NCBI GenBank assembly: GCA_964538855.1
Contig: CAZIEY010000002.1
Span: forward strand, 65,709-129,708
Source of the DNA: an uncultured Candidatus Saccharibacteria bacterium
Lineage (GTDB): Bacteria; Patescibacteriota; Minisyncoccia; Phycocordibacterales; JAACPR01
Direction: 5' to 3'
DNA: 64,000 nucleotides
In this document: positions 3,334 to 58,891 of the stretch, piece by piece
Numbering within the stretch: the first letter of the stretch is position 1
Layout: every line of letters begins with the position of its first letter
Translations under genes and position numbers: made by a program
The notes under the pieces: model-generated
The model's input: the letters and a program-made list of their open reading frames with translations, nothing else
The model's database searches: none
Told to the model about the DNA's origin: nothing

Positions 3334-6018
3334 ATGGTGCCACCATTCAAAAATTTTACATCGAAAGCAAGAGAGGCGATTCGACAAGCGCATGAATTGG
3401 CGCTTGAACGTGGACAAAATCACGTCAATCCACTCCATTTGCTCACCGCACTTCTCACACAAGACGAGAGTTTGGTTATTTCCATTCTCGATAAAATGTC
3501 CAAAGATAGCACTCTGATTTCAGAACGCCTCTTTGATTTGATTGAGGCGCCAGAAGGTTCACCTACATTGTCACCATCATTTCAAATGTATCTATCACCG
3601 GAATTGGCGCAGGTGATCGAGCATTCTAGTCGTATTGCAACCGCGATGAAGGATGAATTCGTTTCAGTCGAACACCTTTTACTTGCAATGTTTGATGCGG
3701 GTGGAGAGGTCACTGAAATTCTTAATCAATTTAAAATTGATAAAGAAGAAGTACTCCGCATCATGAAAGAATTGAAAAATTCCAAGGGTTCAGAAACACA
3801 CGCCACAAAATCTACAAAATCGATTCAGAAATATACACAAAGCCTGACTAAAAAAGCACTCGAGAAAAAGATTGATCCTGTGATAGGTCGTGATTCAGAG
3901 ACAAATCGCATTATTCAAATTTTGTCTCGTCGCACAAAAAATAATCCAATTTTAATTGGAGAAGCGGGTGTTGGTAAAACCGCGATTGTCGAGGGGCTTG
4001 CGAATCGAATCACATCGGGCGATGTACCAGAATCTTTGAAAGACAAAGATGTCGTTTCGCTTGATCTCGGTTCATTGGTGGCCGGAACAAAATACCGTGG
4101 TGAATTCGAGGATCGCCTCAAGAAAATCATGAAGGAAGTCAAAGAGGCCGACGGTAAAATTATTTTGTTTGTGGACGAAATTCACATGCTTGCAGGTGCG
4201 GGTGCAGCCGAAGGGTCACTTGATGCTTCGAATATGCTAAAGCCGGCTTTGGCACGTGGAGAATTTAAATGCATTGGCGCGACGACTCTCAAAGAATATC
4301 AAAAATATATTGAAAAAGACGCGGCGCTGACTCGACGTTTTCAGCCTGTTTTGGTGAGCGAACCTTCCGTCGAAGACGCAATTGCGATTATGCGTGGACT
4401 CAAAGAAAAATATGAACTTTACCACGGTGTACGAATTACAGATGACGCGATTGTGGCATCAGTTGAATTGTCGAGTCGTTACATCACCGACCGATTTTTG
4501 CCAGACAAAGCAGTTGATTTAATTGATGAAGCTGCATCAAGTTTGAAAATTGCGCTTGATAATATGCCACCGGAATTGGAGGCGGCTCGTCGTAAAATTT
4601 TGCGTCTTGAAATTGAACATGAAGCGTTGAAAAACGAGGAGAAAAAATCTGTCAAAGCCCAAAACCGTTTTCGTGATGTCAAAAAAGAAATTGCTGACCT
4701 CAAAGAGGCTAATAGCGAATTGGATTTGAAATGGAAAAACGAAAAGGAAACTATTGCGATCATCAAAGGCCTCAAACAACAGCTAGAGGTGGCGCGCATC
4801 GATGCGGATGCGGCGGTTGCTTCGGCTGATTTGACGACAGCTGCCGAAATTAAGTACGGTAATATTCCAAATCTCGAAAAAGAATTGGCGGCTGCTGACA
4901 AGCGCCTCAAAAAATTGCAGAGCTCTCGACGTATTTTAAAAGAAGAAATTTTGGAATCGGATATTGCCGAAGTAGTTGAACGATGGACTGGTATCCCAAC
5001 AAACCGCATTTTGGAAGGGGAAATCGATAAATTGTCACGCATCGAGACAGAACTCAAAAAGAAAATCATCGGTCAAGATGTTGCAGTCCGAAAAATCGCT
5101 GATACGATTCGTCGCTCACGCGCTGGGATTTCTGATCCAAATCGTCCGATCGGTTCGTTTATTTTCCTCGGGCCAACAGGTGTGGGTAAAACTGAATTAA
5201 CAAAAACGCTCGCGGAATTTTTATTCAATGACGCCAAGGCACTTATCCGTGTCGACATGTCTGAATTTATGGAGAAACATTCAGTTTCAAAATTAATCGG
5301 TGCTCCGCCAGGATATGTTGGTCACGAAGAATCGGGCAGTTTAACTGAAACGGTACGTCATCGACCGTACTCGGTAATTTTGTTTGATGAAATTGAAAAA
5401 GCCCACCCAGAGGTTTTCAATATTCTTCTTCAAGTTCTCGACAATGGACGCCTCACGGATGGAAAGGGTCGCGTGGTCAACTTCAAAAACACTGTTATTA
5501 TTTTGACTTCAAACATCGGTGCTGAACACATCGACAAGATGGAAAAAATCGGTTTCATCGACAATACGAGCGAAGCGAAACAATACGAGGACGCCAAGAA
5601 AAAAATCGAAAAATCTCTCAAGGATCATTTCCGTCCAGAATTTTTGAATCGTCTCGATGATATTGTGATTTTTGATGTCTTGAATCAGGACGTGATCAAA
5701 CAAATTGTTGATATTCAAATGACCGAAGTTGCAAAGCGTCTTGCTGAAAAAGAAATTACACTCAAATTTACACCGGCTGTCGTTGCGTATCTCGGAGTGA
5801 ATGGTTATGACGCACATTACGGAGCGCGTCCTATCAAGCGCATTATTCAAAACAAGATTTTGAATCAAATTGCACAGCTCATTATTAATCGAAAAATCTC
5901 AGCTGGTGACACGATTTCTCTCAATGTGAAAAACGATCAATTTGTCTTTGACGTAAAATCTGGCAAAATCGCGTCATCTTTCAAAGACTCGGACATCAGC
6001 GAAGTTTTATCTGTCTAA
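3334..6018 (+). CDS. clpB: ATP-dependent chaperone ClpB
   Basis: Clp N-domain repeats, two Walker A boxes ([15 protein letters not shown] and [19 protein letters not shown]), and a long coiled-coil M-domain between the AAA modules; 894 aa. Confidence 0.9.
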
Positions 6019-6137
6019 AAACAAAATAACTCGAAATTTTAAAAGTCTGGTTGATCATCAACACAAAACGCACATCCACTTCTGAACGTGCGTGATGCGA
6101 CCCGAGGACTTTAAAATTTCGAGTTATTTTGTTTTTT
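6019..6137. repeat. Palindromic intergenic element, copy 1 (long form)
   Basis: Outer inverted repeat aaaacaaaataactcgaaatttt / aaaatttcgagttattttgtttt encloses a conserved core, ttaaaagtctggttga...gcgacccgaggactttaaaa, with an inner hairpin (acgcac...gtgcgt). Starts 1 nt after the clpB stop and abuts the tRNA-Tyr 3' end. Confidence 0.75.
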
Positions 6138-6224
6138 TGGTGCGCAGAGAAGGATTCGAACCTTCGTAACCCATTGGGTGACAGATTTACAGTCTGTTGT
6201 AATTGACCACTCTACCATCTGCGC
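6138..6224 (-). tRNA. tRNA-Tyr (anticodon GUA), type II long variable arm; CCA encoded
   Basis: Reverse complement reads GCGCAGA-TG-GTAGAGTGG...AGACTGTAAATCTG...CACCCAATGGGTTACG-AAGGTTCGAATCCTT-CTCTGCGC-A-CCA. Acceptor pairing is perfect, the T-loop is TTCGAAT, and the anticodon loop is CTGTAAA. Confidence 0.9.
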
Positions 6225-6327
6225 AATACATACTATACTAACCGTTTTTGAGGTGATTGTCCATCATGGAAAGTCATCTTTTGTTGACATCGCTAATAAC
6301 TATTAGTATAATATTACCCATACAAAT

Positions 6328-6948
6328 ATGTTTAATCACGACGACTCAAAGGATTTTTATGCAAACATCTCGTACTTCCTTGCGGTTACTATAGGGGTTT
6401 TTGCCGTTACTTTTGGGACCTTGTATTATTTGAATTTGGTTCCTGGTTCGCTTCGACAAGCGGCCACCTTGCCGGAAGAAGAAATAGAAGATGTCGAGGA
6501 CGCTCCAATCAGTGCTACTTTGCCGGATCGAATTACCATTCCAAAAATAGGACTTGATGCAATTGTTGGGCATGCGCCTTCACAGGACATTGCGACACTC
6601 AATAGATATGTTGCAGCTGGCGCAGTGTATTATCCTGGGTCTGGAACAATAGAGCAGGGGAATATGTTCGTATTTGGCCACAGCTCTGATTTGTATCGCT
6701 CGGTGCAAAATCCTGCCGACAAGGTTTTTAATAATTTGACCAAGCTTTCTGCTGGCGATGAAATCACTGTGACAGGGGATGGTCAACGATATGTGTATGT
6801 TGTTACTTCCGTTCGTGCCGCCAAGGAGGACACAGAATTGGTGACTTTTGATACTTCTAAGCGTCGAATTACGCTTTCTACTTGTAATACTTTTGGCGAG
6901 AAACAGGATCGTACTGTGGTTGAAGCCGAATTTAGCTATAGTTTATAA
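6328..6948 (+). CDS. Sortase-family transpeptidase
   Basis: N-terminal TM anchor, beta-barrel motifs PDRITIPKIGLDAIV and FVFGHSS, the active-site TLSTC motif (ITLSTCNTF), and a conserved downstream Arg. Confidence 0.8.
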   Translation: MFNHDDSKDFYANISYFLAVTIGVFAVTFGTLYYLNLVPGSLRQAATLPEEEIEDVEDAPISATLPDRITIPKIGLDAIVGHAPSQDIATLNRYVAAGAVYYPGSGTIEQGNMFVFGHSSDLYRSVQNPADKVFNNLTKLSAGDEITVTGDGQRYVYVVTSVRAAKEDTELVTFDTSKRRITLSTCNTFGEKQDRTVVEAEFSYSL

Positions 6949-6973
6949 GGGTATTTGAGACTATCAATATTGC

Positions 6974-7002
6974 TTGACAAAAGTATACAAGGTGATATAA
7001 TA
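6974..7002 (+). promoter_or_regulatory. Sigma-70-like promoter (TTGACA-16-TATAAT) upstream of the 7092 gene
   Basis: ttgaca at 6974-6979 and tataat about 16 nt downstream. Followed by SD aggagaag 7 nt before the ATG at 7092. Confidence 0.5.
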
Positions 7003-7091
7003 TATTTCAGGAGTTTAGGTGATGCGTCGTTACGCGTTATTCTGAGCTTGCTCATTCTCAAATCTCGAACCAACCCCCTAGGAGAAGTATC

Positions 7092-7964
7092 ATGTGGATG
7101 TGGACCTGGATCAAAACTCATAAGGCGCTGACGGCACTTGTAGTCTTGGCGATTGCCATTGCGGTGACTGCCTGGAGGAAGTGGCCTGATACCACCAAGA
7201 TCGAAGCGTCCGCAAAGGCTGAAATGCATGTTAAACTGCAGCAGCTTGAGGACGAGAAAAAGGTCTTAGCGGATAAACTTGCGAGTTCGGAAAAGTTCAC
7301 CAAAGAGTTGGATGAATGGAGCACGCAGCAAACAAATAAGCTTGCTGCCGTGTCGAACGAACTCGTGCAGGTCAAAGCAGCTCTTGAAGCTGCTACTAAG
7401 CCGGCGACTACAGACGCGGTGGAGCGGGCTTCAAACCCCAGTTCATCGGTGTCGTCGACCCTGACGATCAAGGTGCAGGAGAAGAGTCAGGCAGTTGACC
7501 GAGAGCACGCCGAGGCAAAGCTGCAAGGCATGTTCACTTCGGGAACGTTGGTTGATCCAAAGGCGCCTGTTGAAACCCAGCGTGCCTTCGGAGAAGCTCT
7601 AGCCTCGATGTCTGTTCCCAGCAAGTCTGGTGCAGACCTCAAGGTGACGGAGCGCTTCGTTCCTGCGGGATATCTGTTGGTTCCCACCTGGGAGCAGCAA
7701 CAGACAAAGCTGGGTGGAAACCCAGAGATCGATATCCCCCTGTACAAGGGTGAGTTGGTTGCGGGAACTAAGACCGCTCCACCTGTCGATATCGACTTGG
7801 AATCGGGATACTACTGGTTCCATGTCACCGATGCAAAATTGGTGAATCGGGCGTGGAAACACGCCGTTGAGCAAGAGGTACTTTGGGGCAGAAAGAAAGG
7901 AACTGCGCCCAAGACCCCTTCTCCTCGATCCAGCTTCTTCGGAAGAGGGTCGAGGACATCATAA
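7092..7964 (+). CDS. Hypothetical membrane-anchored coiled-coil protein; conspicuously GC-rich gene
   Basis: 290-aa ORF with strong SD. N-terminal TM (ALTALVVLAIAIAVTAW) followed by a coiled-coil (KLQQLEDEKKVLADKLASSEKF). G+C is visibly above the flanking genes. Confidence 0.6.
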   Translation: MWMWTWIKTHKALTALVVLAIAIAVTAWRKWPDTTKIEASAKAEMHVKLQQLEDEKKVLADKLASSEKFTKELDEWSTQQTNKLAAVSNELVQVKAALEAATKPATTDAVERASNPSSSVSSTLTIKVQEKSQAVDREHAEAKLQGMFTSGTLVDPKAPVETQRAFGEALASMSVPSKSGADLKVTERFVPAGYLLVPTWEQQQTKLGGNPEIDIPLYKGELVAGTKTAPPVDIDLESGYYWFHVTDAKLVNRAWKHAVEQEVLWGRKKGTAPKTPSPRSSFFGRGSRTS

Positions 7965-8110
7965 AGTCGTGGGGGTCGCAAGAGTGAGGATAAACACTCA
8001 AGCGACCTGGTCCATGCAATACGCGTCTCCCGTCTGGGCGACGCGTTTTCATTTGACAAATACTCTTACATATGGTATCATATTAATGAAAATAAATTAT
8101 TTAAAAATAT

Positions 8111-9133
8111 ATGAGTTTATCATTCAACACAAAGAAATATATCAAAATTATCGCATCTTTAATGTGCGTGTTTGCTTTGGTTCCTGGTAGTGTTCATGCA
8201 TTTACAACTATTGCTCCTCAAGATGGTTCATTTACTACAATCGCGCCGCAAGACAGTTCGGTTACAACTATTGCTCCTCAAAATGGATCGGTTACAACTA
8301 TTGCTCCGACGCATCACCAAGACTCGTCTTTTACTACAATCGCACCCTCATACGGTGGTTCTAGTAATTATGGTTCATACGGCGGATCTATCAACTACGG
8401 TGGTTACTCCGGCTATTCAAGCGCATACAGCTACGGCACAAACGGTCCTTCATATACGCCTCGATGGAATCCGAATGTTGGCAACTGGTCTGCGAGCTAC
8501 CAAACAAATTATGCGGTGAATGCCCCTGTTCCAAATACACCAGCTTTCGTTAACGGAAACGGCGGAGAAGTTGATATGAGTGGTTGGACTACAGACTATC
8601 GATTAACATACGGAACAAATACAAGCACAGATTATCGCGTAACTTGTTTCGTTGAAGATACAACTGTTCGACGTGGTGACGATGTAGAATTTTCTGCTCG
8701 AGCTATCGGCGGTTCTGGTGACTACGAATACGAATGGTTTGGTGACGACGGTATCGACAGTTCACGAGATGAATTCGAACATGACTTTGATCACGATGGT
8801 GTGTATCGTGTTTCTGTTGAAGTAACAGATGCGGATGGTTACACTACTTCTGATGATTGTGATCCTATATATGTCGGACAGGGTTATTACGGAGTAAATT
8901 ATGTCCAAGATTACGGCTCACCAGAAGGTGAATTGGCAAATACTTCGTCTGTGTATTTGAGCCAGGTGCCTTATACAGGTGCCAAAGACAATGCGAAAAT
9001 CATTGGTCTTGTCGCACTTGTTGCAGTGTGGTCGGTCGCTCTCGGGTATTATTTCTTGAAGCGCCGAAGCACTCAGGCCGTTTCTAACCGAATTGCAGAT
9101 TTCAAGAAGGCGAATCTCGCAAGTCGAATCTAA
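8111..9133 (+). CDS. Cell-surface protein with tandem repeats, a PKD-like domain and an LPXTG-like (VPYTG) sorting signal
   Basis: Signal peptide, then five ~10-aa repeats (FTTIAPQDGS and variants) and a G/S/Y-rich segment. A PKD-like motif follows (YEYEWFGDDG...HDGVYRVSVEVTDADGYTTS). The C-terminus is VPYTG + hydrophobic helix + KRRS tail, the classic sortase-substrate architecture. Confidence 0.7.
   Translation: MSLSFNTKKYIKIIASLMCVFALVPGSVHAFTTIAPQDGSFTTIAPQDSSVTTIAPQNGSVTTIAPTHHQDSSFTTIAPSYGGSSNYGSYGGSINYGGYSGYSSAYSYGTNGPSYTPRWNPNVGNWSASYQTNYAVNAPVPNTPAFVNGNGGEVDMSGWTTDYRLTYGTNTSTDYRVTCFVEDTTVRRGDDVEFSARAIGGSGDYEYEWFGDDGIDSSRDEFEHDFDHDGVYRVSVEVTDADGYTTSDDCDPIYVGQGYYGVNYVQDYGSPEGELANTSSVYLSQVPYTGAKDNAKIIGLVALVAVWSVALGYYFLKRRSTQAVSNRIADFKKANLASRI
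8201..8362 (+). repeat. Five tandem ~30-39 bp in-frame coding repeats inside the surface-protein gene
   Basis: tttacaactattgctcctcaagatggttca / tttactacaatcgcgccgcaagacagttcg / gttacaactattgctcctcaaaatggatcg and two more variants. Confidence 0.8.
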
Positions 9134-9138
9134 TACGA

Positions 9139-9223
9139 ATCAAACAAAAAACTCTTATATTTTAAAAGTCTGGTTGAGCGAAAGCGACCCGAGGACTTTA
9201 AAATTAAGAGCTTTTTTGTTTGG
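9139..9223. repeat. Palindromic intergenic element, copy 2 (short form) between convergent genes
   Basis: caaacaaaaaactcttatattttaaaagtctggttga-gcgaaa-gcgacccgaggactttaaaattaagagcttttttgtttgg. Same core ends as copy 1, no inner 45-bp module, and the outer arms are again self-complementary. Confidence 0.75.
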
Positions 9224-10996
9224 CTACTTCTGATCTAATCGAGTTGCAATTTCTTCTTTGATTCGAGCAACCAAATCTGATTCCGAAAATGCGATTTTAT
9301 CGCCGGAACGCAATTCAACTTGGAATGTTTTTGATTCAACTTCTTTGTCACCGATTACCACAAGGTACGGCACTTTGTAATTTTTAGCTTCGTGAATACG
9401 TTTACCGAGGCTGCTGTTGCCGCTATACGTAGTGCATCGAATGCCGTTTTCGCGCAACACGTCGTGCAATTTTTTCGCAGCTTCGTCATGATTTTCACGC
9501 ACTGGAATTACCGCAACTTGAATTGGTGACAGCCATGTAGGGAAGTTTCCAGCAAAATGTTCAATCAAAAATCCGATGAACCGTTCGTGAGTTCCAAGGG
9601 GTGCGCGGTGAATGATCGCAGGTGTTTTTCGAGTGCTGTCTTTATCGGTATATTCGAGCCCGAATTTTTTACCCATGTATAAGTCGAGCTGATTTGTCGA
9701 AGCGGTAAATGAGCGTCCGATCGATGAATAAATTTGGAAGTCCATTTTTGGTCCGTAGAATGCAGCACCTTCGTGAGCAATTTTAAATGGTACGCCAGAT
9801 TTTTTCATGGCTTCAATCGTCATATTTTCTGCATCCTTCCAATCATTTTCGTCACCATGATATTTATCCATTTTGTTTGGATCACGCAATGCCAATTCCA
9901 TTTCATAGTTAGTGATACCGAGAATTTCGTAATAGTATTGGTGCATTTTAATTACATTCACAAATTCATCAACCGCTTTTTCTTTTTGAATATAGATGTG
10001 GGCATCATTCATTTGCATTCCTCGAACACGCATCAAACCAAAAAGACTGCCAGAATCTTCGAATCGGTGGCACCAGCCGTATTCAGCGAGGCGCACTGGC
10101 AAATCGCGATAACTTTTTGGTCGAGCTGCAAAAGTTTTATGGTGGAAAGGACAGTTCATTGGCTTGATGTAGTAATTTTCTTCCTCGATTACAATCGGAG
10201 CGTACATACTGTCTTTGTATAATGGCAAGTGACCAGACGTATGGAAGAGGTGCTCTTTTGTAATGAGCGGAGTTGTGACGCGTTGATAGCCCCATTTTTC
10301 TTCGGTTTCTTTTGCCCACTTTTCCAATTCTTCTTTTATAATGTTTCCATTTGGCAACCAAATTGGAAGTCCTTTACCAATTTCTTCGTCGAAATAGAAA
10401 ATGTCCATCGCATCGCCAATTTTTCGGTGATCACGTTTTTCAGCTTCTTCGAGATTTTTCTTGTAAGCCTCAAATTCCGCTCCAGTTTCAAACGCCACGC
10501 CGTAAATTCGTGTGAGCATTTTGTTTTTTTCGCTACCACGCCAATATGCGCCGGCGATTTTTGTGAGCTCGAATCCGTCGGCATCAATTTCGCTCGTGTT
10601 TTCAATGTGAGGGCCTGCGCAGAGATCGGTGAATTTATCACCGGTTTTGTATACAGACAACGTTGCGCCGTCTTTGATAAGGTCGGCAATTAATTCCATT
10701 TTATATGGTTGGTCTGCAAACATTTTCTTTGCTTCGTCTGCGGTCACTTCTGCATACGTGAAAGGGAGTTTGCCACCAATTAACTTTTTCATGCCTTTCT
10801 GAAAATCCTTCAATTCTTTTTCAGTCGGAGCTTTTCCTTCGCTAAATTCAAAATCGTAATAAAACCCATTATCAATAACCGGTCCAATCGCCAATTTGGC
10901 TTTCGGATCGAATTTAAGCACTTCGATTGCAAGAAGGTGCGCCAAAGAATGGCGAACTTTCGCAACGTGCGCTACGTTGTTGTCTGTTTTTGTCAT
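9224..10996 (-). CDS. thrS: Threonyl-tRNA synthetase (short form without the N-terminal TGS domain)
   Basis: Class II aaRS catalytic core and C-terminal anticodon-binding domain. The N-terminus starts at the editing-domain HxxxH region (VRHSLAHLLA); 590 aa. Confidence 0.9.
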   Translation of the reverse strand: MTKTDNNVAHVAKVRHSLAHLLAIEVLKFDPKAKLAIGPVIDNGFYYDFEFSEGKAPTEKELKDFQKGMKKLIGGKLPFTYAEVTADEAKKMFADQPYKMELIADLIKDGATLSVYKTGDKFTDLCAGPHIENTSEIDADGFELTKIAGAYWRGSEKNKMLTRIYGVAFETGAEFEAYKKNLEEAEKRDHRKIGDAMDIFYFDEEIGKGLPIWLPNGNIIKEELEKWAKETEEKWGYQRVTTPLITKEHLFHTSGHLPLYKDSMYAPIVIEEENYYIKPMNCPFHHKTFAARPKSYRDLPVRLAEYGWCHRFEDSGSLFGLMRVRGMQMNDAHIYIQKEKAVDEFVNVIKMHQYYYEILGITNYEMELALRDPNKMDKYHGDENDWKDAENMTIEAMKKSGVPFKIAHEGAAFYGPKMDFQIYSSIGRSFTASTNQLDLYMGKKFGLEYTDKDSTRKTPAIIHRAPLGTHERFIGFLIEHFAGNFPTWLSPIQVAVIPVRENHDEAAKKLHDVLRENGIRCTTYSGNSSLGKRIHEAKNYKVPYLVVIGDKEVESKTFQVELRSGDKIAFSESDLVARIKEEIATRLDQK

Positions 10997-11011: not shown

Positions 11012-14000
11012 CTATTTTATAAGATTTTCCAATGTCGCCGCCTTGTCGACGAGTAAACTGAATTCGCCGTTGCGATCCGAATATTTTCCCTTAACAATAA
11101 TACAATTGCCCGGAACGAGTATAGTTTTGGACTTTTTGTACATTTCGGGGAAAAATACAACCTCGGCGGTGTCATTCGCGTCGGCGATTTGTACAAATGC
11201 CATCGCTGCGCCCTTTTTGGTCAAAATTTCTTTGACCGTTTCAACGTGTCCAATGAGTTTAAGTTCAACTCCGGCCTTTGCAGTTTTTTTAATTTTTGAA
11301 ATATTGAAGTCCGATTTCGCAAATTTTCCGCTATATTTGTCGAGAGGGTGGCCGGAAATGTAGAGACCGAGTAATTCTTTTTCCCATCGCAATTTTTGAT
11401 CGTTTGAAACCGGTTCGGCTTTTGTTAATTTCAATTTCGGCGCCGCGACAAGGTCAGAATTCGCAAACAAATTTGTCTGAGATTGTGATGCTTTCGCGAT
11501 TTCTTTGTTGTAGGCTAAAATCTCGTCCAAATTTTCAAGCATTTCATTTCGCTCTCCAAATGAATCGAGCGCGCCAGTTTTAATTAATGCTTCGAGAGAT
11601 TTTTTATTGAAAGCCCGACTGTGAACGCGCGAGATAAAGTTTTCAAGCGACGTATATGGTCCGCGCGCCTTTCGCTCTTCAATCATTTCAAGGGCGATAC
11701 CTTCACCAAAGTTTTTAATACTGCTGAGTCCAAAACGAATATCGCCGTCTGGGTGACCTTCTGGATTAGCTGCATTTTTTCTTTCGACCACAGCAAAGTC
11801 GACGAATGATTCGTTGATGTCGGGTGGCAATACGCGAATCCCAATTTTTTTACACTCCGCAATCATTTCAGCGATTTTTTCAACTTCACCAGAATCGGAT
11901 GTCAAAACGGCCGCCATATAAATGACAGGGAAGTTTGCCTTCAAATATGAAGTTAAATACGCAACGCGACCGTACGAAGCAGCGTGACCTTTGTTGAATC
12001 CGTAGGCGGCGAATGTTTCAATTGACTCCCACAAATGTTGTGTGTCTGATTTTGAAAGCCCACCTTTTTCAATACAACCTTTGGTGAATTTTTCGTACTC
12101 AGCCTTCATAACCTCGGGAATTTTCTTACCCATGGCTTTACGGAATTTGTCGGCTTCTCCCCATGAATATCCCGCTATCTTCACAGCAATCATCATAATA
12201 TCGTCTTGATAAATCAAAACTCCGTAGGTGCCTGCGATAATTTCTTTGAAGCGATCGTCGATGTACGTCACTTTGCTTGGGTCGTGTTTACGTGCGATAT
12301 AATCGGGAATGAAAGCCATCGGACCTGGACGGTAGAGCGCCACCATCGCGTTGATGTCGTTGATGTTTGTTGGTTTGAGCTCTTTCAAAAAGCGTGTCAT
12401 ACCCTGACCGTTCAATTGGAAAGTTGCCGCAGTTTCGCCACGTGCGAGCATCTCGTATGTTTTTTTGTCATCGAGTGGAATCGTTTCTGTATCCAAATCG
12501 AGTCCGCGAATTTTTTTAATAATGCGCAGAGTGTTTCCGATGATGGTTAAGTTTTTCAAACCAAGGAAGTCAAATTTCAAAAGCCCGATGCCGTCTTCAC
12601 CGACCGCGTGCATGTCGTACTGAGTAATTAATTTTCCTTCACCTTTTGGATCATATTGTACGGGCACGTGTTCGATCAGGGGGTCAGGAGAAATCACCAC
12701 ACCTGCGGCGTGGACACCAATGTGACGGGCGCAGCCTTCGATTTTTTGGGCCATATCGAGAATTTGTCCGACCTCTTCGTCGCTCTCGTACATTTCTTTC
12801 AGCTCAGGAACTTCATCAAGTGCCTTTTTGATGGTCATTGGAAAACCTTGCGCACCCATTGGAATTAATTTTGCAATTCTGTCGGCGATAGAAATTTCAA
12901 AACCCATAGCACGAGCAGCGTCGCGCACAGATCCACGGGCAAGCATAGTACCGAAAGTTCCGATTTGAGCCACGTGATTCGCACCATATTTTTCACGTAC
13001 GTAGGCGAGCAATTCGTCACGTCTATCGTCGGCAAAGTCCATATCGATGTCGGGCGCAGACGGACGTTCTGGATTGAGGAAGCGTTCAAACGGCAAACCG
13101 AACGCAATCGGATCAACTGCGGTAATTCCGACGAGATAGGAAATGTACGAACCAGCTGCGGAACCTCTTGTATTACTTTGGATTTTTAATTCTTTTGCTT
13201 TAGAAAAAAGATCCGCCACCACGAGGAAATATTTTGAGTAGCCTTTTTGTGAAATAATTTTAAGTTCGTAATCGATACGTTCTTGAATTGACGGCGTTAT
13301 GTCGATACCTTTTTTCACAGCGCCAGCCAAAGCCATTTCACGTAACGCTTCGTCCGCAGTTTTGCCACCAGGAATTATGAAGTTGGGGAATTTCCATTGT
13401 TTGAGGGGAATTTCCAAATTGCAAGCATCGACGATTTTTTGAATGTTGTCGAGAGCTTCTGGTGTGTCTTTAAAAAACTCGTTCGCTTTTTCTTGTGTTG
13501 TAAATGAAAAATCCTCTGTCGTCGTATCAAAAGTAGACTCTTTGCCACCGAAACTGCTTTGTACGGAAAGGAGAGTTCGTCGCGCACCGTAATCGTCCGG
13601 TTTGATGTAATAGACGTCGTTTGCTGCGACGAGTGGAATTTTTTCGGTCGCTGCGAATTTCTTGATTTTTTCGGTAAGCGCAGGGAATTCGGCAATTTCA
13701 GGGTGATGTAATAATTCGAGGTAAAAATCATCGCCGAAAATACCACGCAAAAATTGCGCTGTCTCACGAGCTTTCTCGGCTTCATCATTTTTCAGGTGCA
13801 CGGAAATTTCCCCAGCAAACGCGGGTGAAATACAAATCAAATCATTGTGATATTTTTCGAGTAACTCGCGGTCGATGCGCGGTTTGTAATAAAAACCTTC
13901 GAGATGCGAATAGGTGACGAGCTTGATGAGGGTTTTGTAGCCTTCGAAATTTTTTGCGAGCAACACGAGTCGTGTGCGCCGGTTATCGATACGCCCCTCT

Positions 14001-14242
14001 TTGTCATGTCGTGTTCGCACCGCCATGTACGCGTCGATTCCTAAAATTGGTTTGATACCTGCGCCTTTGCATTCTTCATAAAAAGAAATCGCACCGTATA
14101 AATTTCCATTGTCGGTGAGTGCAACCGCAGTTGCTCCGTCATTTTTCGCAGCCTCGACAATCTCATCAATTTTCGGAAGTGCGTTCAAAAGACTGTAATG
14201 GCTGTGTACGTGGAGATGGGTGAAGGGCTTCATAATGTGCAC
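11012..14242 (-). CDS. dnaE: DNA polymerase III alpha subunit
   Basis: N-terminal PHP domain FTHLHVHSHYSLL, polymerase core, and C-terminal OB fold; 1076 aa. Confidence 0.9.
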   Translation of the reverse strand: MHIMKPFTHLHVHSHYSLLNALPKIDEIVEAAKNDGATAVALTDNGNLYGAISFYEECKGAGIKPILGIDAYMAVRTRHDKEGRIDNRRTRLVLLAKNFEGYKTLIKLVTYSHLEGFYYKPRIDRELLEKYHNDLICISPAFAGEISVHLKNDEAEKARETAQFLRGIFGDDFYLELLHHPEIAEFPALTEKIKKFAATEKIPLVAANDVYYIKPDDYGARRTLLSVQSSFGGKESTFDTTTEDFSFTTQEKANEFFKDTPEALDNIQKIVDACNLEIPLKQWKFPNFIIPGGKTADEALREMALAGAVKKGIDITPSIQERIDYELKIISQKGYSKYFLVVADLFSKAKELKIQSNTRGSAAGSYISYLVGITAVDPIAFGLPFERFLNPERPSAPDIDMDFADDRRDELLAYVREKYGANHVAQIGTFGTMLARGSVRDAARAMGFEISIADRIAKLIPMGAQGFPMTIKKALDEVPELKEMYESDEEVGQILDMAQKIEGCARHIGVHAAGVVISPDPLIEHVPVQYDPKGEGKLITQYDMHAVGEDGIGLLKFDFLGLKNLTIIGNTLRIIKKIRGLDLDTETIPLDDKKTYEMLARGETAATFQLNGQGMTRFLKELKPTNINDINAMVALYRPGPMAFIPDYIARKHDPSKVTYIDDRFKEIIAGTYGVLIYQDDIMMIAVKIAGYSWGEADKFRKAMGKKIPEVMKAEYEKFTKGCIEKGGLSKSDTQHLWESIETFAAYGFNKGHAASYGRVAYLTSYLKANFPVIYMAAVLTSDSGEVEKIAEMIAECKKIGIRVLPPDINESFVDFAVVERKNAANPEGHPDGDIRFGLSSIKNFGEGIALEMIEERKARGPYTSLENFISRVHSRAFNKKSLEALIKTGALDSFGERNEMLENLDEILAYNKEIAKASQSQTNLFANSDLVAAPKLKLTKAEPVSNDQKLRWEKELLGLYISGHPLDKYSGKFAKSDFNISKIKKTAKAGVELKLIGHVETVKEILTKKGAAMAFVQIADANDTAEVVFFPEMYKKSKTILVPGNCIIVKGKYSDRNGEFSLLVDKAATLENLIK

Positions 14243-23989: not shown

Positions 23990-24117
23990 AAGAAAAACAA
24001 AGTAACTAAATTTTAAAGTCCTCGGGTCGCATCACGCACGTTCAGAAATGAATGTGCGTTTTGTGTTGATGCTCAACCAGACATTTAAAATTTAGTTACT
24101 TTGTTTTTCTTGACAAG
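23990..24117. repeat. Palindromic intergenic element, copy 3 (long form, inverted orientation)
   Basis: aaaaacaaagtaactaaattttaaagtcctcgggtcgc...ctcaaccagacatttaaaatttagttactttgttttt. Near-exact reverse complement of the copy-1 core, including the 45-bp inner module. The outer arms, taactaaa / tttagtta, are self-complementary but differ from copy 1. Confidence 0.75.
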
Positions 24118-52282: not shown

Positions 52283-53251
52283 ATGATTCGCAAACGCATC
52301 GCCATCGTCCGTGGGGGACCTTCGTCCGAATATGATGTATCGCTCAAATCGGGCAAGCATGTTTTGCATGAATTGTCTGACGATTTTCATGTCGTTGATG
52401 TCGTGATTGACAAAGCCGGCGTCTGGCATATTTCTGGCCTGCCACGCGACCCTCACGAAGCACTCGCGCACGTCGATGTGGTTTTCAATGCGATGCACGG
52501 CGAATACGGCGAGGACGGCAAATTCCAACAGCTCATGGAAAATTTGGGCAAGCCTTACACAGGATCTGGTGCGCTTGGTGCCGCGATGTCGATGAATAAA
52601 GAAAAGGCGAAAGAGCTTTTCAAAAAAGCCGGCCTCAAAACGCCCGTGCATAAAACGCTGTCTCGTCCAGAGAGCGAGGGCGGTCTCGAATTTCAAGCGA
52701 CGCTCGTCTTTCGCAATTTCACGATGCCCGTCATTGTAAAGCCGATTAACAAAGGCTCATCGATTGGCGTTTCGAAAGCTCACACATTCGAAGAATTAAA
52801 AACCGCGATGTCGACCGCGTATTCGTTCAGCGAAAAAATTATTGTCGAAGAATTCATCGACGGCAAAGAGGCAACAGTCGGCGTTCTTGAAAATTTCCGA
52901 GGCGAAAATGTCTATGCATTTATGCCCGTCGAAATTGAAGTTCCAAAACAGAAAAAACTTTTTGATTATGAAGCAAAAACGTCGGATGAAACTCGTAAAA
53001 AAAGCCCCGGCAATTTCACTCGCGAGGAAAGCAAATTGCTCGAAGACGCGGCTCGCACCGCCCACGAAGTGCTCGGCTTGCGCCACTACTCTCGCTCTGA
53101 TTTTATCGTGCACCCACGCCGTGGCGTCTACATTTTAGAAACGAACGCGTTGCCCGATATTTCGCGCGACTCGACATTGCATCATTCGTTGCAGGCGGTG
53201 GGGATGTCGTACAAGGATTTCTTGATTCATGTGATTAATTTACTAAATTAA
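52283..53251 (+). CDS. ddl: D-alanine--D-alanine ligase (paralog 1, compact)
   Basis: MIRKRIAIVRGGPSSEYDVSLKSG and an ATP-grasp fold; 322 aa. Confidence 0.85.
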   Translation: MIRKRIAIVRGGPSSEYDVSLKSGKHVLHELSDDFHVVDVVIDKAGVWHISGLPRDPHEALAHVDVVFNAMHGEYGEDGKFQQLMENLGKPYTGSGALGAAMSMNKEKAKELFKKAGLKTPVHKTLSRPESEGGLEFQATLVFRNFTMPVIVKPINKGSSIGVSKAHTFEELKTAMSTAYSFSEKIIVEEFIDGKEATVGVLENFRGENVYAFMPVEIEVPKQKKLFDYEAKTSDETRKKSPGNFTREESKLLEDAARTAHEVLGLRHYSRSDFIVHPRRGVYILETNALPDISRDSTLHHSLQAVGMSYKDFLIHVINLLN

Positions 53252-53494: not shown

Positions 53495-53653
53495 ATTTAT
53501 TGTTATGAAAATCATTGTAAACAACATCGCCACCGAATACACGGATGAGGGCTCTGGCCCAGTCATTTTGTGTTTACATGGATGGAAGGACAGTTTGCGA
53601 ACATTTGATGCGCTCGAGCCTGAATTAGTGAAAAAAAATGTAGAAAACTCCGC
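53495..53653 (+). pseudogene. Truncated duplicate of the 5' end of the alpha/beta hydrolase gene
   Basis: 53495..53610 is 116/116 identical to 54135..54250, both starting exactly at the ATG. It then diverges and hits a stop after 13 codons (52 aa). Confidence 0.7.
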
Positions 53654-54134: not shown

Positions 54135-54884
54135 ATGAAAATCATTGTAAACAACATCGCCACCGAATACACGGATGAGGGCTCTGGCCCAGTCATTTTG
54201 TGTTTACATGGATGGAAGGACAGTTTGCGAACATTTGATGCGCTCGAGCCGGCATTGCTCCAAAAAGGCCGAGTCATCGCCGTTGATTTGCCGGGCTTTG
54301 GCGAAACGGGAAATCCACCCGAAGCGTGGCAGGTTGGTGATTATGTGCAATTCGTCGCGGACTTTTTGAAAAAATTGAATGTCGAGGCGGACGTGCTCAT
54401 TGGCCACTCGTTCGGCGGGCGTATCATCATCAAGGGGCTTGGTGAAGGGAAATTGCGAGCTCAGAAAATAGTTTTGATCGCTTCCGCTGGAATCGTTCCT
54501 GAGAAAACGTGGCGAAGCCGTCTCGTCGCGATTGTCTCGCGTGCCGCGGCCGTTTTCTTCCGCATCCCGCCATTTCATTTTCTTCGCAATAAAATGCGCG
54601 CGATTTTCTATAAAAAAATCGGTAGCGATTATTTGAATGCCGGCGCTCTCCAGGAAACTTTCCTAAAAATTATTGCCGAAGATCTCTCTGACTACGCGCG
54701 ACGCATCACTATTCCGACCTTGCTCATCTGGGGCAAGCACGACAAGGCGACTCCTCTCGCGACCGCTGAAAAATTGCACGCGCTCATCGCTGGGTCTCGT
54801 CTCGAAGTTTTTCCCGACGCTGCTCATTTTGTGCATCATGAAAAAGCGGTGGAAGTCGGAGGGTTGATCAGTCGATTTTTGTAG
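54135..54884 (+). CDS. Alpha/beta-fold hydrolase
   Basis: LHGWKDS, nucleophile elbow GHSFGG, and a C-terminal His in the catalytic triad region. Extended -10 tgctacaat upstream. Confidence 0.8.
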   Translation: MKIIVNNIATEYTDEGSGPVILCLHGWKDSLRTFDALEPALLQKGRVIAVDLPGFGETGNPPEAWQVGDYVQFVADFLKKLNVEADVLIGHSFGGRIIIKGLGEGKLRAQKIVLIASAGIVPEKTWRSRLVAIVSRAAAVFFRIPPFHFLRNKMRAIFYKKIGSDYLNAGALQETFLKIIAEDLSDYARRITIPTLLIWGKHDKATPLATAEKLHALIAGSRLEVFPDAAHFVHHEKAVEVGGLISRFL

Positions 54885-55443: not shown

Positions 55444-56922
55444 ATGTTGAAAAGCTTTTTTAAAAAATTCCTCTCGCAATTTCACTATCGATTTCCGCGT
55501 AGTATTATTTATATGTTGCAAGTGAGCGAGTATAACATTCGCGACTATGTGCAGTGGTTGGATCGTGTGCATCATTTTGGTCGAGTTGAAGTGCGCAAAA
55601 CTCTTGTGCCGACCGCAAAATCGAAATTGATGCGAATCAAATTATGGGCAATTATCGTGGCGCTTTTTGCGGGGTCGATTGCTGGGTTCGTGTTCGCCGA
55701 TACTTTTTTTGAGAACCTGATCGCAGTCGTCGTGTTTTTATTCACGCCGATTTTGTCCGCGTATGTGATGGTTATTCCGGTCTTTTTCTTTGCGCTTCTT
55801 GTGCAGAAACCGCATGAGTGGCATATGATTCGTCAGGCTACCAAAAAATTGGCTGGGCATAAAGGCTTCAAAATCGCAATCGCTGGCAGTTATGGCAAGA
55901 CTTCGATGCGCAACATGCTCGCAACTGTTTTGCGCGAGGCAAAAAATGTGGCGACGCAAGAAAAAAACTTTAACACGTTGGCCGGTATTAGCCGCTTCAT
56001 TACAAATCTGAAAGGTGATGAGGAAGTGATCATTTTCGAGCTCGGCGAATACATGCCTGGTGATATTGCAAAAATGTGCACGATTATTCGGCCGGACCTC
56101 GGTATTGTGACGGGGATTAACGAGGCGCACCTACATAATTTCAAGAATGTAAACGCAACGGCGCACGAAATTTTTACGCTTGCTGATTTTGTCCACGACA
56201 AGCCGCTTTATGTGAACGGAGAAAATACTCGCGCGCGGCAATTTGTGGCGCACATGAACTCAAAGAATTTGCACGAATATTCTCGAGAGGGAATCGCGGT
56301 CGCACATGTGGCTGGTGCGAATTTCACCGTGTCCGAAGCTGAAACGGATTTGGATGGGGTGCGTTTTACTATCACTTGTGACGATACGCCGATTCGAGCA
56401 GAATCAGGATTGCTCGGGCTTCATCAAATTGGGCCGTTGTCTGCGGCGATTAAAATTGCACATGATATGGGTTTGACTCGTGAGCAGATCGAAGCTGGCA
56501 TCACTAAAACGCGCGCGTTTGAACATCGTCTCGAACCTAAAATAAATTCAGTTGGAGTAATTACGCTCGATGACAGTTACAATGGCAATCCTGATGGAGT
56601 GGTTGCGGTGATTGATTTTTTGGCGAGTCTCCGCAACACACGCCGATTTTATGTAACACCTGGTCTTGTCGAAATGGGGAGTGCGAGCGAAGCGGTCCAC
56701 CGCATGATTGGTCAGAAATTGGCTCGGTCCGGAATTGAAAACGTGGTGCTCATTCAAAATTCTGCGACACCCGATATCGAATTCGGACTTCTCGAAAATA
56801 AATATCCGGGCAAAATTATTACATTCCCAAACGCATTCGCGGCATTTGCGGCACTCGAACATTTGACGACGACAGGTGATGTGGTGCTTTTGCAAAATGA
56901 TTGGCCGGACCAGTATGCGTAA
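55444..56922 (+). CDS. murF: MurF-like Mur ligase with an unusual N-terminal multi-TM domain
   Basis: IAGSYGKTSMRNM (compare MurF GSSGKTSVKEM), NTLAGI, and LDDSYNGNPDGV (compare MurF DDSYNAN). The first ~120 aa are hydrophobic helices instead of the usual MurF N-domain. Confidence 0.7.
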   Translation: MLKSFFKKFLSQFHYRFPRSIIYMLQVSEYNIRDYVQWLDRVHHFGRVEVRKTLVPTAKSKLMRIKLWAIIVALFAGSIAGFVFADTFFENLIAVVVFLFTPILSAYVMVIPVFFFALLVQKPHEWHMIRQATKKLAGHKGFKIAIAGSYGKTSMRNMLATVLREAKNVATQEKNFNTLAGISRFITNLKGDEEVIIFELGEYMPGDIAKMCTIIRPDLGIVTGINEAHLHNFKNVNATAHEIFTLADFVHDKPLYVNGENTRARQFVAHMNSKNLHEYSREGIAVAHVAGANFTVSEAETDLDGVRFTITCDDTPIRAESGLLGLHQIGPLSAAIKIAHDMGLTREQIEAGITKTRAFEHRLEPKINSVGVITLDDSYNGNPDGVVAVIDFLASLRNTRRFYVTPGLVEMGSASEAVHRMIGQKLARSGIENVVLIQNSATPDIEFGLLENKYPGKIITFPNAFAAFAALEHLTTTGDVVLLQNDWPDQYA

Positions 56923-57553: not shown

Positions 57554-58891
57554 ATGAACACCACCCGTAAAACAGTCGCCGTTATTTTTGGAGGTCGCAG
57601 CGCCGAGCACGACGTTTCGATTATCACCGCACACAATCCAATTATCGAGTCGCTTCTCGCAACCAATTTGTACGAAGTTGTGCCAGTTTACATTTCCAAA
57701 AAAGGCGTGTGGTATTCCGATGTGGCAATGAACGATTTGGCTTTCTTCAAAAATCCGGCGTATGAACAAAATTTGGAAAAGACAAAACCAGTTTCAATTT
57801 CGGTGAATGGCGCTTTCGAATTAATTTGGCATGGACTACGCGACAAGCGCGTCAAAATCGATCTTGTGTTTCCTGCAATGCACGGAACATACGGCGAGGA
57901 CGGTTCGCTCATGGGATTGCTCCGTATGGCGAATGTGCCATTTGTGGGATGTGATTTGTTTGCATCGGCCGTTGCGATGGACAAAGTCTTGACCAAAGAC
58001 CTTGTGAAATCAAATGGTGTGCCAGTCGTGCCTCATGTGTGGTTTACCGCGTCTGATTGGGCTGATAAAACAAAACGCGTCGCTTTAAAAACAGAAATGA
58101 TGAAATTGATGAAGGTCGAGATTCCTGATCCTACTCCGACGCCAGCACCTGTGGTGGAACCGGTTGTAGAGGTTGCGCCAATGTCGGCGGGGGAAGTTTC
58201 TTTGGAAAATCCTGTTGCACCAGCACCAGCCCCCGCTCCTGTCGAAGCTCCAAAACCAATTTTCAAAATACGCCCGCTTTTCGTAAAGCCAGTGCACCTT
58301 GGCTCTTCGATCGGAATCACAAAGGTCAAAACTGAACGCGAATTGGACAACGCGATAGAAGTTGCGCTTCACTATGACGACAAGGTGCTTGTCGAACTTG
58401 GTGTTGAAAATTTGATCGAGGTCACTTTGCCGATGATCGGAAACGACGTCGTGGAATTTGCAGCAATCGAACGCCCTTTGAACAAAGGAGAATTTTTGGA
58501 TTACAATGAAAAATATTTAAAGGGTGGTAAAAAGGGTGGAGGAGTCAATAGTGGCGACCAACGAGAAATTCCCGCAAAAATTGACGATGAATTATCTGCG
58601 CGTGTTCGTGAAATCGGCGAGAAGACTTACAAGACACTTGGGTGTACTGGAATCGCTCGTGTTGACATGCTTATTGATTCAATGGCGCGTACTGTTTTCA
58701 TGAACGAAGTGAACACTTTGCCAGGCAGTCTCTATGCGCACAATTGGCGCCGAGTCGGGGTCTCAAATATCGACCTTATCACGAAACTAATCACATTTGC
58801 CGAGGCTCGCTTTGCAGCACAAAACAAAATTACACACACATTCAATTCTACAATTTTGCAAAAGTCAGGAGGTGGAAAAAAGCTGGGCTAG
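57554..58891 (+). CDS. D-alanine--D-alanine ligase family (paralog 2) with a ~60-aa Pro/Ala-rich insertion
   Basis: VAVIFGGRSAEHDVS, HGTYGEDGSLMGLL, and ATP-grasp C-terminal motifs. The insertion is IPDPTPTPAPVVEPVVEVAP...PAPAPAPVEAPKP. Confidence 0.8.
   Translation: MNTTRKTVAVIFGGRSAEHDVSIITAHNPIIESLLATNLYEVVPVYISKKGVWYSDVAMNDLAFFKNPAYEQNLEKTKPVSISVNGAFELIWHGLRDKRVKIDLVFPAMHGTYGEDGSLMGLLRMANVPFVGCDLFASAVAMDKVLTKDLVKSNGVPVVPHVWFTASDWADKTKRVALKTEMMKLMKVEIPDPTPTPAPVVEPVVEVAPMSAGEVSLENPVAPAPAPAPVEAPKPIFKIRPLFVKPVHLGSSIGITKVKTERELDNAIEVALHYDDKVLVELGVENLIEVTLPMIGNDVVEFAAIERPLNKGEFLDYNEKYLKGGKKGGGVNSGDQREIPAKIDDELSARVREIGEKTYKTLGCTGIARVDMLIDSMARTVFMNEVNTLPGSLYAHNWRRVGVSNIDLITKLITFAEARFAAQNKITHTFNSTILQKSGGGKKLG

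Follow-up and report, generated by a model that had tools for sequence, protein, structure and literature searches.

A likely dedicated sortase-substrate module for surface display in Paceibacteria

Within a 64-kb stretch of DNA (contig CAZIEY010000002.1; hereafter, the window), three plus-strand open reading frames (ORFs) lying between clpB and the convergent thrS gene encode a sortase, an orphan protein in the middle position, and a secreted protein that is the predicted sortase substrate. We consider it likely that this locus is a dedicated surface display module of Paceibacteria, in which one unclassified, membrane-anchored sortase acts on one cognate substrate encoded just downstream. The genome, that of an ultra-small bacterium, is placed in Paceibacteria (Parcubacteria; candidate phyla radiation, CPR) because the named relatives of the sortase come from metagenome-assembled genomes of Paceibacteria, Parcubacteria, Paceibacterota, or Patescibacteria. 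An attached life on other cells is presumed for Paceibacteria and other CPR bacteria, whose surface molecules are almost unknown. Recurring across the lineage, the module singles out one predicted covalently displayed protein per genome, the outer part of which evolves extremely fast, and this protein is a concrete candidate for the factor that attaches to or recognizes a host, as well as a handle for tagging or pull-down. Judged from sequence, the module probably serves cell-surface display and attachment. Two of its features are puzzling, namely, a conserved cytoplasmic tail or domain in the substrate and a GC-rich, hypervariable middle gene.

Conserved pairing of the two outer genes was assessed in both directions, covering 64 kb here and, in the other genomes, 10 kb to either side. 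A forward sample of 80 loci in species-representative genomes, taken from 255 sortase relatives found, comprised sortases that were 35 to 50% identical. In 52 of these loci there was a single ORF bearing the C-terminal domain described below, always on the same strand as the sortase and downstream of it; the gap between the genes was 0 to 250 bp in about half of the cases and otherwise 0.7 to 3.3 kb, with 6 kb in one locus. In 15 of the 28 loci without a substrate, the downstream sequence extended 2.2 kb at most, and the pairing rate among informative loci was 52/65 (80%). For the reverse scan, an exact-match degenerate DNA pattern for VYLxQVPYTG was run over metagenome contigs; it returned 65 loci, 64 of them true domains, with a sortase upstream of the motif in 14 of the 17 contigs that had at least 4 kb of upstream sequence. 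A second sortase was never seen at any locus examined, and no other credible signal (xPx[TSA][GANSD] followed by a transmembrane [TM] segment and basic residues near a C terminus) was found in 1.17 Mb of flanking sequence plus the window. The initial annotation of this DNA had suggested a substrate-specific sortase pair with a variant motif, and the counts in both directions bear this out: the conserved adjacency of a dedicated sortase with a single target is present. In the close relatives L001, L002, and L149 (our locus identifiers, used throughout), the order sortase, middle gene(s), PKD substrate, thrS, dnaE is the same; the L001 and L002 sortases are 92% and 62% identical to that of the window.

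Were the enzyme a general housekeeping sortase with many substrates across the genome, the adjacent gene would be just one of them. Each genome was seen in part only, and the core gene order around the sortase (clpB, tRNA-Tyr, sortase, thrS, dnaE) is indeed conserved, which points to a core function inherited by vertical descent and would suit such an enzyme. Nevertheless, we hold this explanation to be very unlikely, since no additional signal-bearing ORF was found in about 1.23 Mb, or roughly one to two genome equivalents, which limits additional substrates to about two or fewer per genome. Furthermore, the profile of the C-terminal domain retrieved only 470 proteins (E ≤ 1e-3; 150 at E ≤ 1e-10) among 1.84 billion representatives clustered at 50% identity, and this number, together with the hypervariable N termini, fits about one substrate per genome. 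The initial annotation called the pair housekeeping-independent, a term that presupposes a second sortase with a housekeeping role; none was seen in the regions examined, and the sortase may be the only one that the genome encodes.

The C terminus of the predicted substrate reads SVYLSQVPYTG-AKDNAK-IIGLVALVAVWSVALGYYFL-KRRS-TQAVSNRIADFKKANLASRI, where TQAVSNRIADFKKANLASRI denotes 20 residues past KRRS that are conserved in relatives. The VPYTG-hydrophobic-KRRS tail described in the initial annotation is thus present in its elements, but it is incomplete, as the protein continues for those 20 residues and the conserved motif is about 10 residues long rather than 5. All substrate homologues end in a single domain of approximately 50 to 70 amino acids, and this C-terminal segment, far from being poorly conserved in orthologues, is better conserved than any other part of these proteins, which are otherwise hypervariable. 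The domain of the window protein matched the profile of its relatives at E = 1.9e-32; given this value and a family of 470, chance is excluded.

Among 133 unique family members, the successive motif positions were S in 112, V in 125, Y or F in 82 and 44, L in 133, S or N in 78 and 50, Q in 129, V or I in 106 and 24, P in 133, Y in 127, T in 133, and G in 133. Past the Gly, an x-x-D (D in 99/133) is followed by an x-x-K (K in 106/133), the helix carries a W-S pair (W in 85/133, S in 119/133), and the cytoplasmic tail has I in 106/133, F in 130/133, K in 130/133, and N in 131/133; the tail counts are somewhat ascertainment-biased, since the tail was part of the profile used to collect the 133 members. 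The consensus is therefore S-V-[YF]-L-[SN]-Q-[VI]-P-Y-T-G..D..K, a TM helix with W-S, a basic cluster, and I..FK..N. A tripartite layout of P-x-T-G-type motif, hydrophobic helix, and basic residues was present in all 133 members (VPYTG, a 20-residue TM helix, and KRR in the window protein), and this combination follows the logic of sortase signals. A recognition sequence of 10 residues would fit a one-to-one relation of enzyme and substrate in which no promiscuity is needed, and it could serve as an orthogonal ligation tag.

Several points weigh against the proposed module. Further substrates or sortases may lie elsewhere, beyond the reach of the searches. About 20% of the sortase loci (13/65) have no adjacent substrate, and about 18% of the substrates have no adjacent sortase. 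Pfam Gram_pos_anchor (PF00746), TIGR01167, and the NCBIfam CTERM models gave no match to the substrate at E ≤ 1. In the window protein, 50 residues follow the motif (21 after KRR), versus the 30 to 35 or so expected, and a subfamily has 90 to 370 residues past the TM helix, including a conserved cytoplasmic domain that would be unexpected were the C-terminal fragment waste. Finally, cleavage and wall linkage are deduced from sequence. Some of these points would equally suit a stable type I membrane protein that is no sortase substrate, with VYLSQVPYTG as a juxtamembrane structural motif and the sortase acting elsewhere: the signal fails the LPXTG anchor hidden Markov models (HMMs), the long cytoplasmic extensions of relatives would be at home in an uncleaved membrane protein, and some sortase loci and some substrates stand alone. 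We regard this alternative as distinctly unlikely in view of the adjacency of about 80% in both directions, which holds between sortases 35 to 50% identical and in differing genomic contexts, and of the invariant P-x-T-G with an acidic residue, a TM helix, and basic residues after it, exactly as in sortase signals; in addition, no alternative substrate was found in 1.2 Mb.

In the 13 substrate-free informative loci, a regular-expression search and ORF inspection revealed no divergent motif, and thrS lay directly after the sortase. These loci suggest that the module was lost or replaced. Across the substrate-free loci (L008, L010, L030, L031, L034, L036, L044, L052, L055, L062, L068, L077, and L082), the next gene is thrS or another gene. 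L068 and L077 have a divergent upstream gene for what appears by eye to be a PKD-type protein that has a hydrophobic segment near its N terminus and lacks a C-terminal signal, and L036, L044, L055, L062, and L082 encode a different protein in that upstream position. In the metagenome loci L113, L130, and L144, the pair is arranged differently: a VPYTG protein is accompanied by a much longer sortase-like ORF (approximately 450 amino acids) on the opposite strand, 1.5 to 2.5 kb upstream.

The length and conservation of the region past the motif require separate consideration. It exceeds 30 residues in all 151 family members, with 45 to 60 in 112 and more than 100 in 24. The long-tailed proteins, found as 24 of the 151 members and at 13 of the 52 loci (L020, L032, L037, L046, L049, L061, L064, L069, L070, L071, L074, L078, and L080, and a subset of proteins P0200 to P0277), share a cytoplasmic domain of about 70 amino acids past the TM helix with the pattern (I/L)E.YAR..KV(I/L)LS.DA...(E/D)W..(I/L)GE.D and no Pfam match. 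A tail as near-invariant as I..FK..N implies something that classical LPXTG signals lack, either an additional step of recognition or retention or a function of the leftover fragment. Accordingly, the sortase may cleave the substrate with signaling or quality control as the main or a co-equal aim, the membrane-embedded C-terminal fragment (the Gly290 stub, TM helix, basic cluster, and either the I..FK..N tail or, in relatives, a cytoplasmic domain of about 70 to 340 amino acids) acting inside the cell, where it could report display or contact. Such a role would resemble the sensing of leftover LPXTG C-peptides in Streptococcus gordonii. The cytoplasmic F, K, and N match the P-Y-T-G core in conservation, and both the lack of a classical short tail throughout the family and the conserved domain of the long-tailed members agree with such a role. 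We nonetheless consider it unlikely, because no conserved partner or sensor gene lies nearby, the flanks consisting of housekeeping genes, and because the tail could merely help the sortase to hold or recognize its substrate. A possible equivalence of the 20-residue tail with the first helix of the long domain (IADFKKAN versus IEDYARxN) was rejected, as the domain HMM scored short tails no better than shuffled ones. Whatever its role, this conserved cytoplasmic element challenges the view of the C-terminal fragment as disposable.

Turning to the enzyme, the sortase gene with a TLSTC active site noted in the initial annotation was confirmed by a match to Pfam Sortase (PF04203; E = 7.9e-23, 81 bits versus a cutoff of 26.6), and TIGR01076 was also passed (40.5 bits; cutoff, 39.35). 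His118, Cys186, and Arg195 are invariant in an alignment of 23 diverse relatives (37 to 63% identical). An AlphaFold model built with the alignment of relatives (mean predicted local distance difference test score, 85) has the expected strand order and the eight-stranded beta-barrel fold of sortases. Foldseek comparison of the model with the PDB gave 129 matches at E ≤ 0.001, and the top 50 listed were all sortases. Solved structures of classes A, C, D, and E were about equally similar (E of approximately 1e-10 to 1e-9; 18 to 27% identity), the first rank being taken by the class C structure 8t28 (E = 1.3e-10); class F was not represented in the top matches listed. By sequence, the closest solved sortase is SrtD of C. 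perfringens (4d70; E = 1.2e-5). The NCBIfam models for classes C, D, E, F, and GN (NF033745 to NF033748, NF058671, and TIGR03784) scored 22 to 36 bits versus cutoffs of 140 to 166. Since no class model was reached and the fold shows no preference for class A over C, D, or E, the protein lies outside every class model tested and is a true sortase of an unclassified clade, which is what the module adds to sortase biology. The class E or F membership considered in the initial annotation was not upheld by this HMM classification; nor did any pilus-specific or unrelated named class claim the enzyme, which leaves the idea of a dedicated pair intact. Transpeptidase activity, with a cut after the motif Thr and transfer to an amine, is predicted for the catalytic domain (residues ~60 to 206), for which a SSVYLSQVPYTGAKD peptide would be the target.

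The ectodomain of the predicted substrate has a very different history from that of its C terminus. Every family member has an N-terminal signal peptide, and the signal peptide and PKD-like domain claimed for the window protein were both found (PF18911, E = 2.2e-8, 34.4 bits versus a cutoff of 27; PF00801, E = 1.7e-5, 25.1 bits versus 23.5). PKD_4 occurs in 36 of 52 family members and SpaA-type prealbumin-fold domains in 2 of 52. Otherwise, the homologues share almost nothing N-terminally, having differing repeats or low-complexity sequence and one to several PKD or Ig domains; an aromatic-rich, acidic, low-complexity N terminus is common to the family by composition, while the sequence itself is unconserved. 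The mature window protein is acidic and has 259 residues with no Lys and 25 Tyr (about 10%), Tyr content in the family reaching 28% (L005).

The five tandem 30-bp repeats reported initially were recovered in part: five (F/V)TTIAP units exist, but only three are clean 10-residue (30-bp) units, the fourth having 13 residues and the fifth being partial and merging into a Tyr/Gly/Ser-rich region. TRF detected 3.5 copies with a period of 30 and 76% matches at 8202-8307, and a repeat search of the gene gave unit spacings of 30, 30, and 39 at 64 to 83% identity. The suggestion that the repeats are linked to variation was supported by comparison of orthologues, which are 49 to 60% identical overall and keep the PKD and sorting domains, with N-terminal repeat units (FTTIAPQ.., YSTPISSQS, TNFVSPTVH, and QTYGTPISS) and copy numbers that differ; in the closest relative, an assembly gap (run of N) falls exactly in the repeat region.

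Lysine content bears directly on whether substrate monomers are joined head to tail into a pilus, as by class C sortases. The mature part is also lysine-free in at least six relatives (L005, L013, L018, L019, L041, and L065), leaving no pilin-motif (YPKN-like) nucleophile; lysine-mediated pilus polymerization is thus excluded for these proteins, and a monomeric product would result. The class C structure at rank 1 in the Foldseek comparison, the NCBIfam class C score of 33.8 bits, and the SpaA-type domains in two family members hint at such a pilus, as do pilus-like appendages on CPR cells (pili and sortase in CPR are discussed in Meheust et al., 2019, PMC6744442). Against polymerization, the class C score is far under its cutoff of 160 and not above the D and E scores, the folds of classes A, D, and E match equally well, and the locus has a single substrate gene with no tip or base pilins. 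We therefore give very little credence to a pilus.

In the mechanism that we propose for the display module, which is the most economical one and amounts to ordinary sortase chemistry on one client, the substrate would be exported by the Sec pathway via its signal peptide and retained in the membrane by the C-terminal TM helix and basic cluster, which would act as a stop-transfer sequence. The sortase would recognize V-[YF]-L-[SN]-Q-[VI]-P-Y-T-G, and Cys186 would attack the Thr289-Gly290 bond to form a thioester at Thr289. The N-terminal part, comprising the repeats, the Tyr-rich region, and the PKD domain, would then pass to an amine nucleophile, most likely a peptidoglycan precursor. Genes for two D-Ala-D-Ala ligases (Ddl) and one Mur ligase are present in the window, which implies that peptidoglycan is made. 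In the covalently displayed product, the PKD domain would lie closest to the wall and the hypervariable, aromatic-rich tip would face outward, and the product may function as an adhesin or recognition factor.

In its parts, the module resembles the class A (housekeeping) sortases and LPXTG proteins of Firmicutes. Shared features are a cysteine transpeptidase that is anchored as a type II membrane protein and has a His-Cys-Arg triad and TLxTC and, in the substrate, a signal peptide, a P-x-T-G core, an acidic residue past the Gly, a TM helix, and a basic cluster. However, the motif here has 10 conserved positions rather than 5, Val or Ile replacing Leu and the X position being almost invariably Tyr; there is an added cytoplasmic tail (I..FK..N) or domain; one substrate is served instead of many; and the anchor HMMs are unmatched, with identity to solved sortases of 18 to 27%. 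The substrate also lacks the LPXTG anchor arrangement in which the signal lies at the extreme C terminus with a short charged tail after the TM helix. Classes E (LAXTG), D (LPNTA), F, and C gave weak partial NCBIfam matches (30 to 36 bits versus cutoffs of 140 to 166), and the module differs from classes C to F in having no class C lid, no pilin substrates, and a motif unlike every class consensus.

In its way of working, the module is most like class GN ("marine," subfamily 6; TIGR03784/TIGR03788), which, according to TIGRFAMs/NCBIfam descriptions and the work of Comfort and Clubb, reportedly has a single adjacent target in Proteobacteria. Both have one sortase gene beside one dedicated variant-motif target and occur outside the classical Gram-positive bacteria. 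In contrast, the window sortase scored 22 bits versus a TIGR03784 cutoff of 158, and motif, taxon, and architecture differ (PKD and low complexity here, a vWFA-type target there). Exosortase/PEP-CTERM, archaeosortase/PGF-CTERM, and rhombosortase/GlyGly-CTERM are said, from Haft's work, to be dedicated pairs with tripartite C-terminal signals. The signature motif, TM helix, and basic cluster are common to these systems and to the module, as is co-occurrence of the enzyme with its targets, sometimes a single adjacent one, whereas their enzymes are unrelated polytopic membrane proteins and the module has a true sortase and an extra cytoplasmic element. Gram-positive Sdr and serine-rich-repeat adhesins combine a sortase-type C-terminal signal with varying low-complexity repeats and Ig-like domains. 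The substrate shares that signal, the fast-varying repeats, and the Ig-like domains, but its low-complexity part is N-terminal at what would be the distal tip, not a wall-spanning stalk, and the PKD domain would be wall proximal.

With respect to CPR bacteria, a sortase family is reported to be present in more than half of the genomes, which is all that is noted on it (Meheust et al., 2019, PMC6744442). In the searchable literature, VPYTG or PYTG was not linked to sortase and LPXTG was not linked to CPR taxa, and neither the motif nor sortase signals in CPR are described there. Absent from the family libraries and literature searched, the module is apparently undescribed.

The middle gene encodes a membrane protein that is GC-rich, as first noted (GC content of 0.537 versus a window mean of 0.431, with no richer stretch of equal length anywhere in the 64 kb), with GC at third codon positions (GC3) of 0.60 versus 0.38 and 0.34 in the neighboring genes. 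An uninterrupted ORF of 290 codons has an estimated chance of about 4e-6 at this base composition, and this, together with the consensus promoter, indicates that 7092-7964 codes for protein. By comparison with P0278 and L001, its true start is probably at 7098. A single-sequence AlphaFold prediction was confident for the TM segment (residues 2 to 29) and a long helix (34 to 112), with the remaining C-terminal ~180 amino acids unpredicted. Only the N-terminal 134 amino acids align with the L001 orthologue (48% identity), and among 5.8 billion clusters the sole match was the protein itself. The proteins in this slot are all bitopic; Pfam and PHROGs gave nothing meaningful for them, and homology among them across lineages was rejected, as all-against-all phmmer and jackhmmer searches linked close pairs only.

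The compositional anomaly recurs at the same position. In 13 of 15 other loci with a gap of at least 800 bp, the GC maximum of the locus (12 to 20 kb) falls between the sortase and substrate genes, slot GC being 5 to 22 points above that of the locus and GC3 being 0.41 to 0.73 versus 0.14 to 0.58 in the sortases. At the DNA level, 7220-8375 has no similarity to L001 save a 64-nucleotide patch, and the flanks are 84 to 87% identical. No template repeat that would mark this segment as the target of a diversity-generating retroelement was found in the 64 kb, reverse-transcriptase genes not being specifically searched, and Rfam gave chance-level matches only, so that a structured RNA was discarded as the cause of the GC-rich segment. 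Repeated acquisition at a hot spot, expression-linked codon bias, and a very fast-evolving host-interaction factor are all possible explanations; a GC-rich, non-homologous middle-slot gene is worth study in itself. A broader scheme, speculative and rather improbable, would join all of these elements in a three-part host-interaction cassette, in which the sortase cuts at the extended site, displays a hypervariable, Tyr-rich "sticky" ectodomain, and frees a conserved membrane and cytoplasmic fragment that signals inside the cell, with the middle gene as a repeatedly replaced specificity determinant, possibly host derived.

Table 1. Coordinates of the module, its parts, and other features (window positions unless a locus is named)
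Feature	Position	Strand	Remarks
clpB	3334-6018		Upstream border gene
Palindromic hairpin element, ~120 nt, perfect stem	6017-6136	Strandless	Directly past clpB stop codon; upstream locus border
tRNA-Tyr (GTA)	6138-6224	-	ARAGORN and Rfam tRNA, 62.6 bits; directly upstream of sortase
Promoter, sigma-70-like, TTGACA-17-TATAAT, 12/12	6284-6312	+	16 nt before sortase ATG
Sortase, 206 aa	6328-6948	+	TM anchor ~residues 15-37, acidic linker, catalytic domain 67-206
Sortase catalytic residues	His118, 6679-6681; Cys186 (TLSTC), 6883-6885; Arg195, 6910-6912	+	
Promoter, TTGACA-16-TATAAT and extended TG, 12/12	6974-7001	+	Upstream of middle gene
Orphan bitopic membrane protein (middle gene), 290 aa	7092-7964	+	GC-rich, fast-evolving; TM residues 2-29, long helix 34-112
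Hypervariable segment	7220-8375	Strandless	Middle ectodomain, intergenic region, substrate signal peptide and repeats; blastn versus L001
Promoter, TTGACA-17-TATCAT and TG, 11/12 (near-consensus)	8053-8081	+	30 nt before substrate ATG
Predicted sortase substrate, 340 aa	8111-9133	+	Secreted, acidic, lysine-free, Tyr-rich; PKD domain, C-terminal sorting domain
Signal peptide, residues 1-30, ...PGSVHA/F	8111-8200	+	Read from sequence
(F/V)TTIAP repeats, five units (10 aa, three times; 13 aa, once; partial, once)	8201-8365	+	TRF, repeat search, sequence
Tyr/Gly/Ser-rich low-complexity region	8345-8515 (approximate)	+	Sequence
PKD domain, residues 181-251, two Cys	8651-8863	+	PF18911 (PKD_4) and PF00801
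Extended motif VYLSQVPYTG, residues 281-290	8951-8980	+	Predicted scissile bond Thr289-Gly290; logo of family
TM helix, residues 297-316 (W307-S308), and basic cluster KRR, 317-319	8999-9067	+	Sequence, conservation
Cytoplasmic tail, residues 320-340, I328-x-x-F331-K332-x-x-N335	9068-9130	+	Conservation
thrS	9224-10996	-	Convergent with module
dnaE	11012-14242	-	Beyond thrS
Ddl paralogues	52283-53251 (322 aa) and 57554-58891 (445 aa)		Flank Mur ligase
Mur ligase	55444-56922		
GC-rich middle slots, window and close relatives	Window 7092-7964; L001 1118-1903; L002 6869-7813; L149 2933-3617		
Further GC-rich middle slots	L004, L009, L016-L019, L026, L041, L045, L054, L059		

Each of the three genes is preceded by a consensus or near-consensus promoter (Table 1), which would predict high expression; sites matching at least 11 of 12 consensus positions number 12 in the whole 64 kb on both strands, 3 of them in the sortase locus. 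The hairpin element at the upstream border (RNA fold, -48.2 kcal/mol, z = -8.2; terminal inverted arms of ~30 bp) is repeated in the window as an inverted copy at 24008-24115 (87%) and a partial copy at 9197-9225. It is also found in L001 (3115-3235, 91%), there 3' of the substrate gene versus after clpB in the window. At approximately 110 to 120 nucleotides, it looks like a miniature inverted-repeat transposable element or a bidirectional terminator.

Of 60 loci scanned, 20 have a tRNA-Tyr gene 100 to 700 bp before the sortase, among them L004 (1105-1191) and L016 (9813-9897), and a DNA match of window positions 6139-7220 to L001 suggests that the tRNA gene is present there as well. Loci with this upstream tRNA-Tyr form one lineage and are largely the same as those with a GC-rich middle gene. 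Its position next to a Tyr-rich substrate family may be coincidence or may reflect a link through expression or integration.

Farther along the window, the two Ddl paralogues have a common 46-nucleotide patch that is 78% identical. A direct repeat of 132 nucleotides (53505-53636 and 54135-54266; 95% identical, 630 nucleotides apart) overlaps the start of an ORF at 54135-54884. GC and GC3 are higher at 40000-64000 (approximately 0.45 to 0.56) than at 1-40000 (approximately 0.30 to 0.44), and the genome is compositionally heterogeneous.

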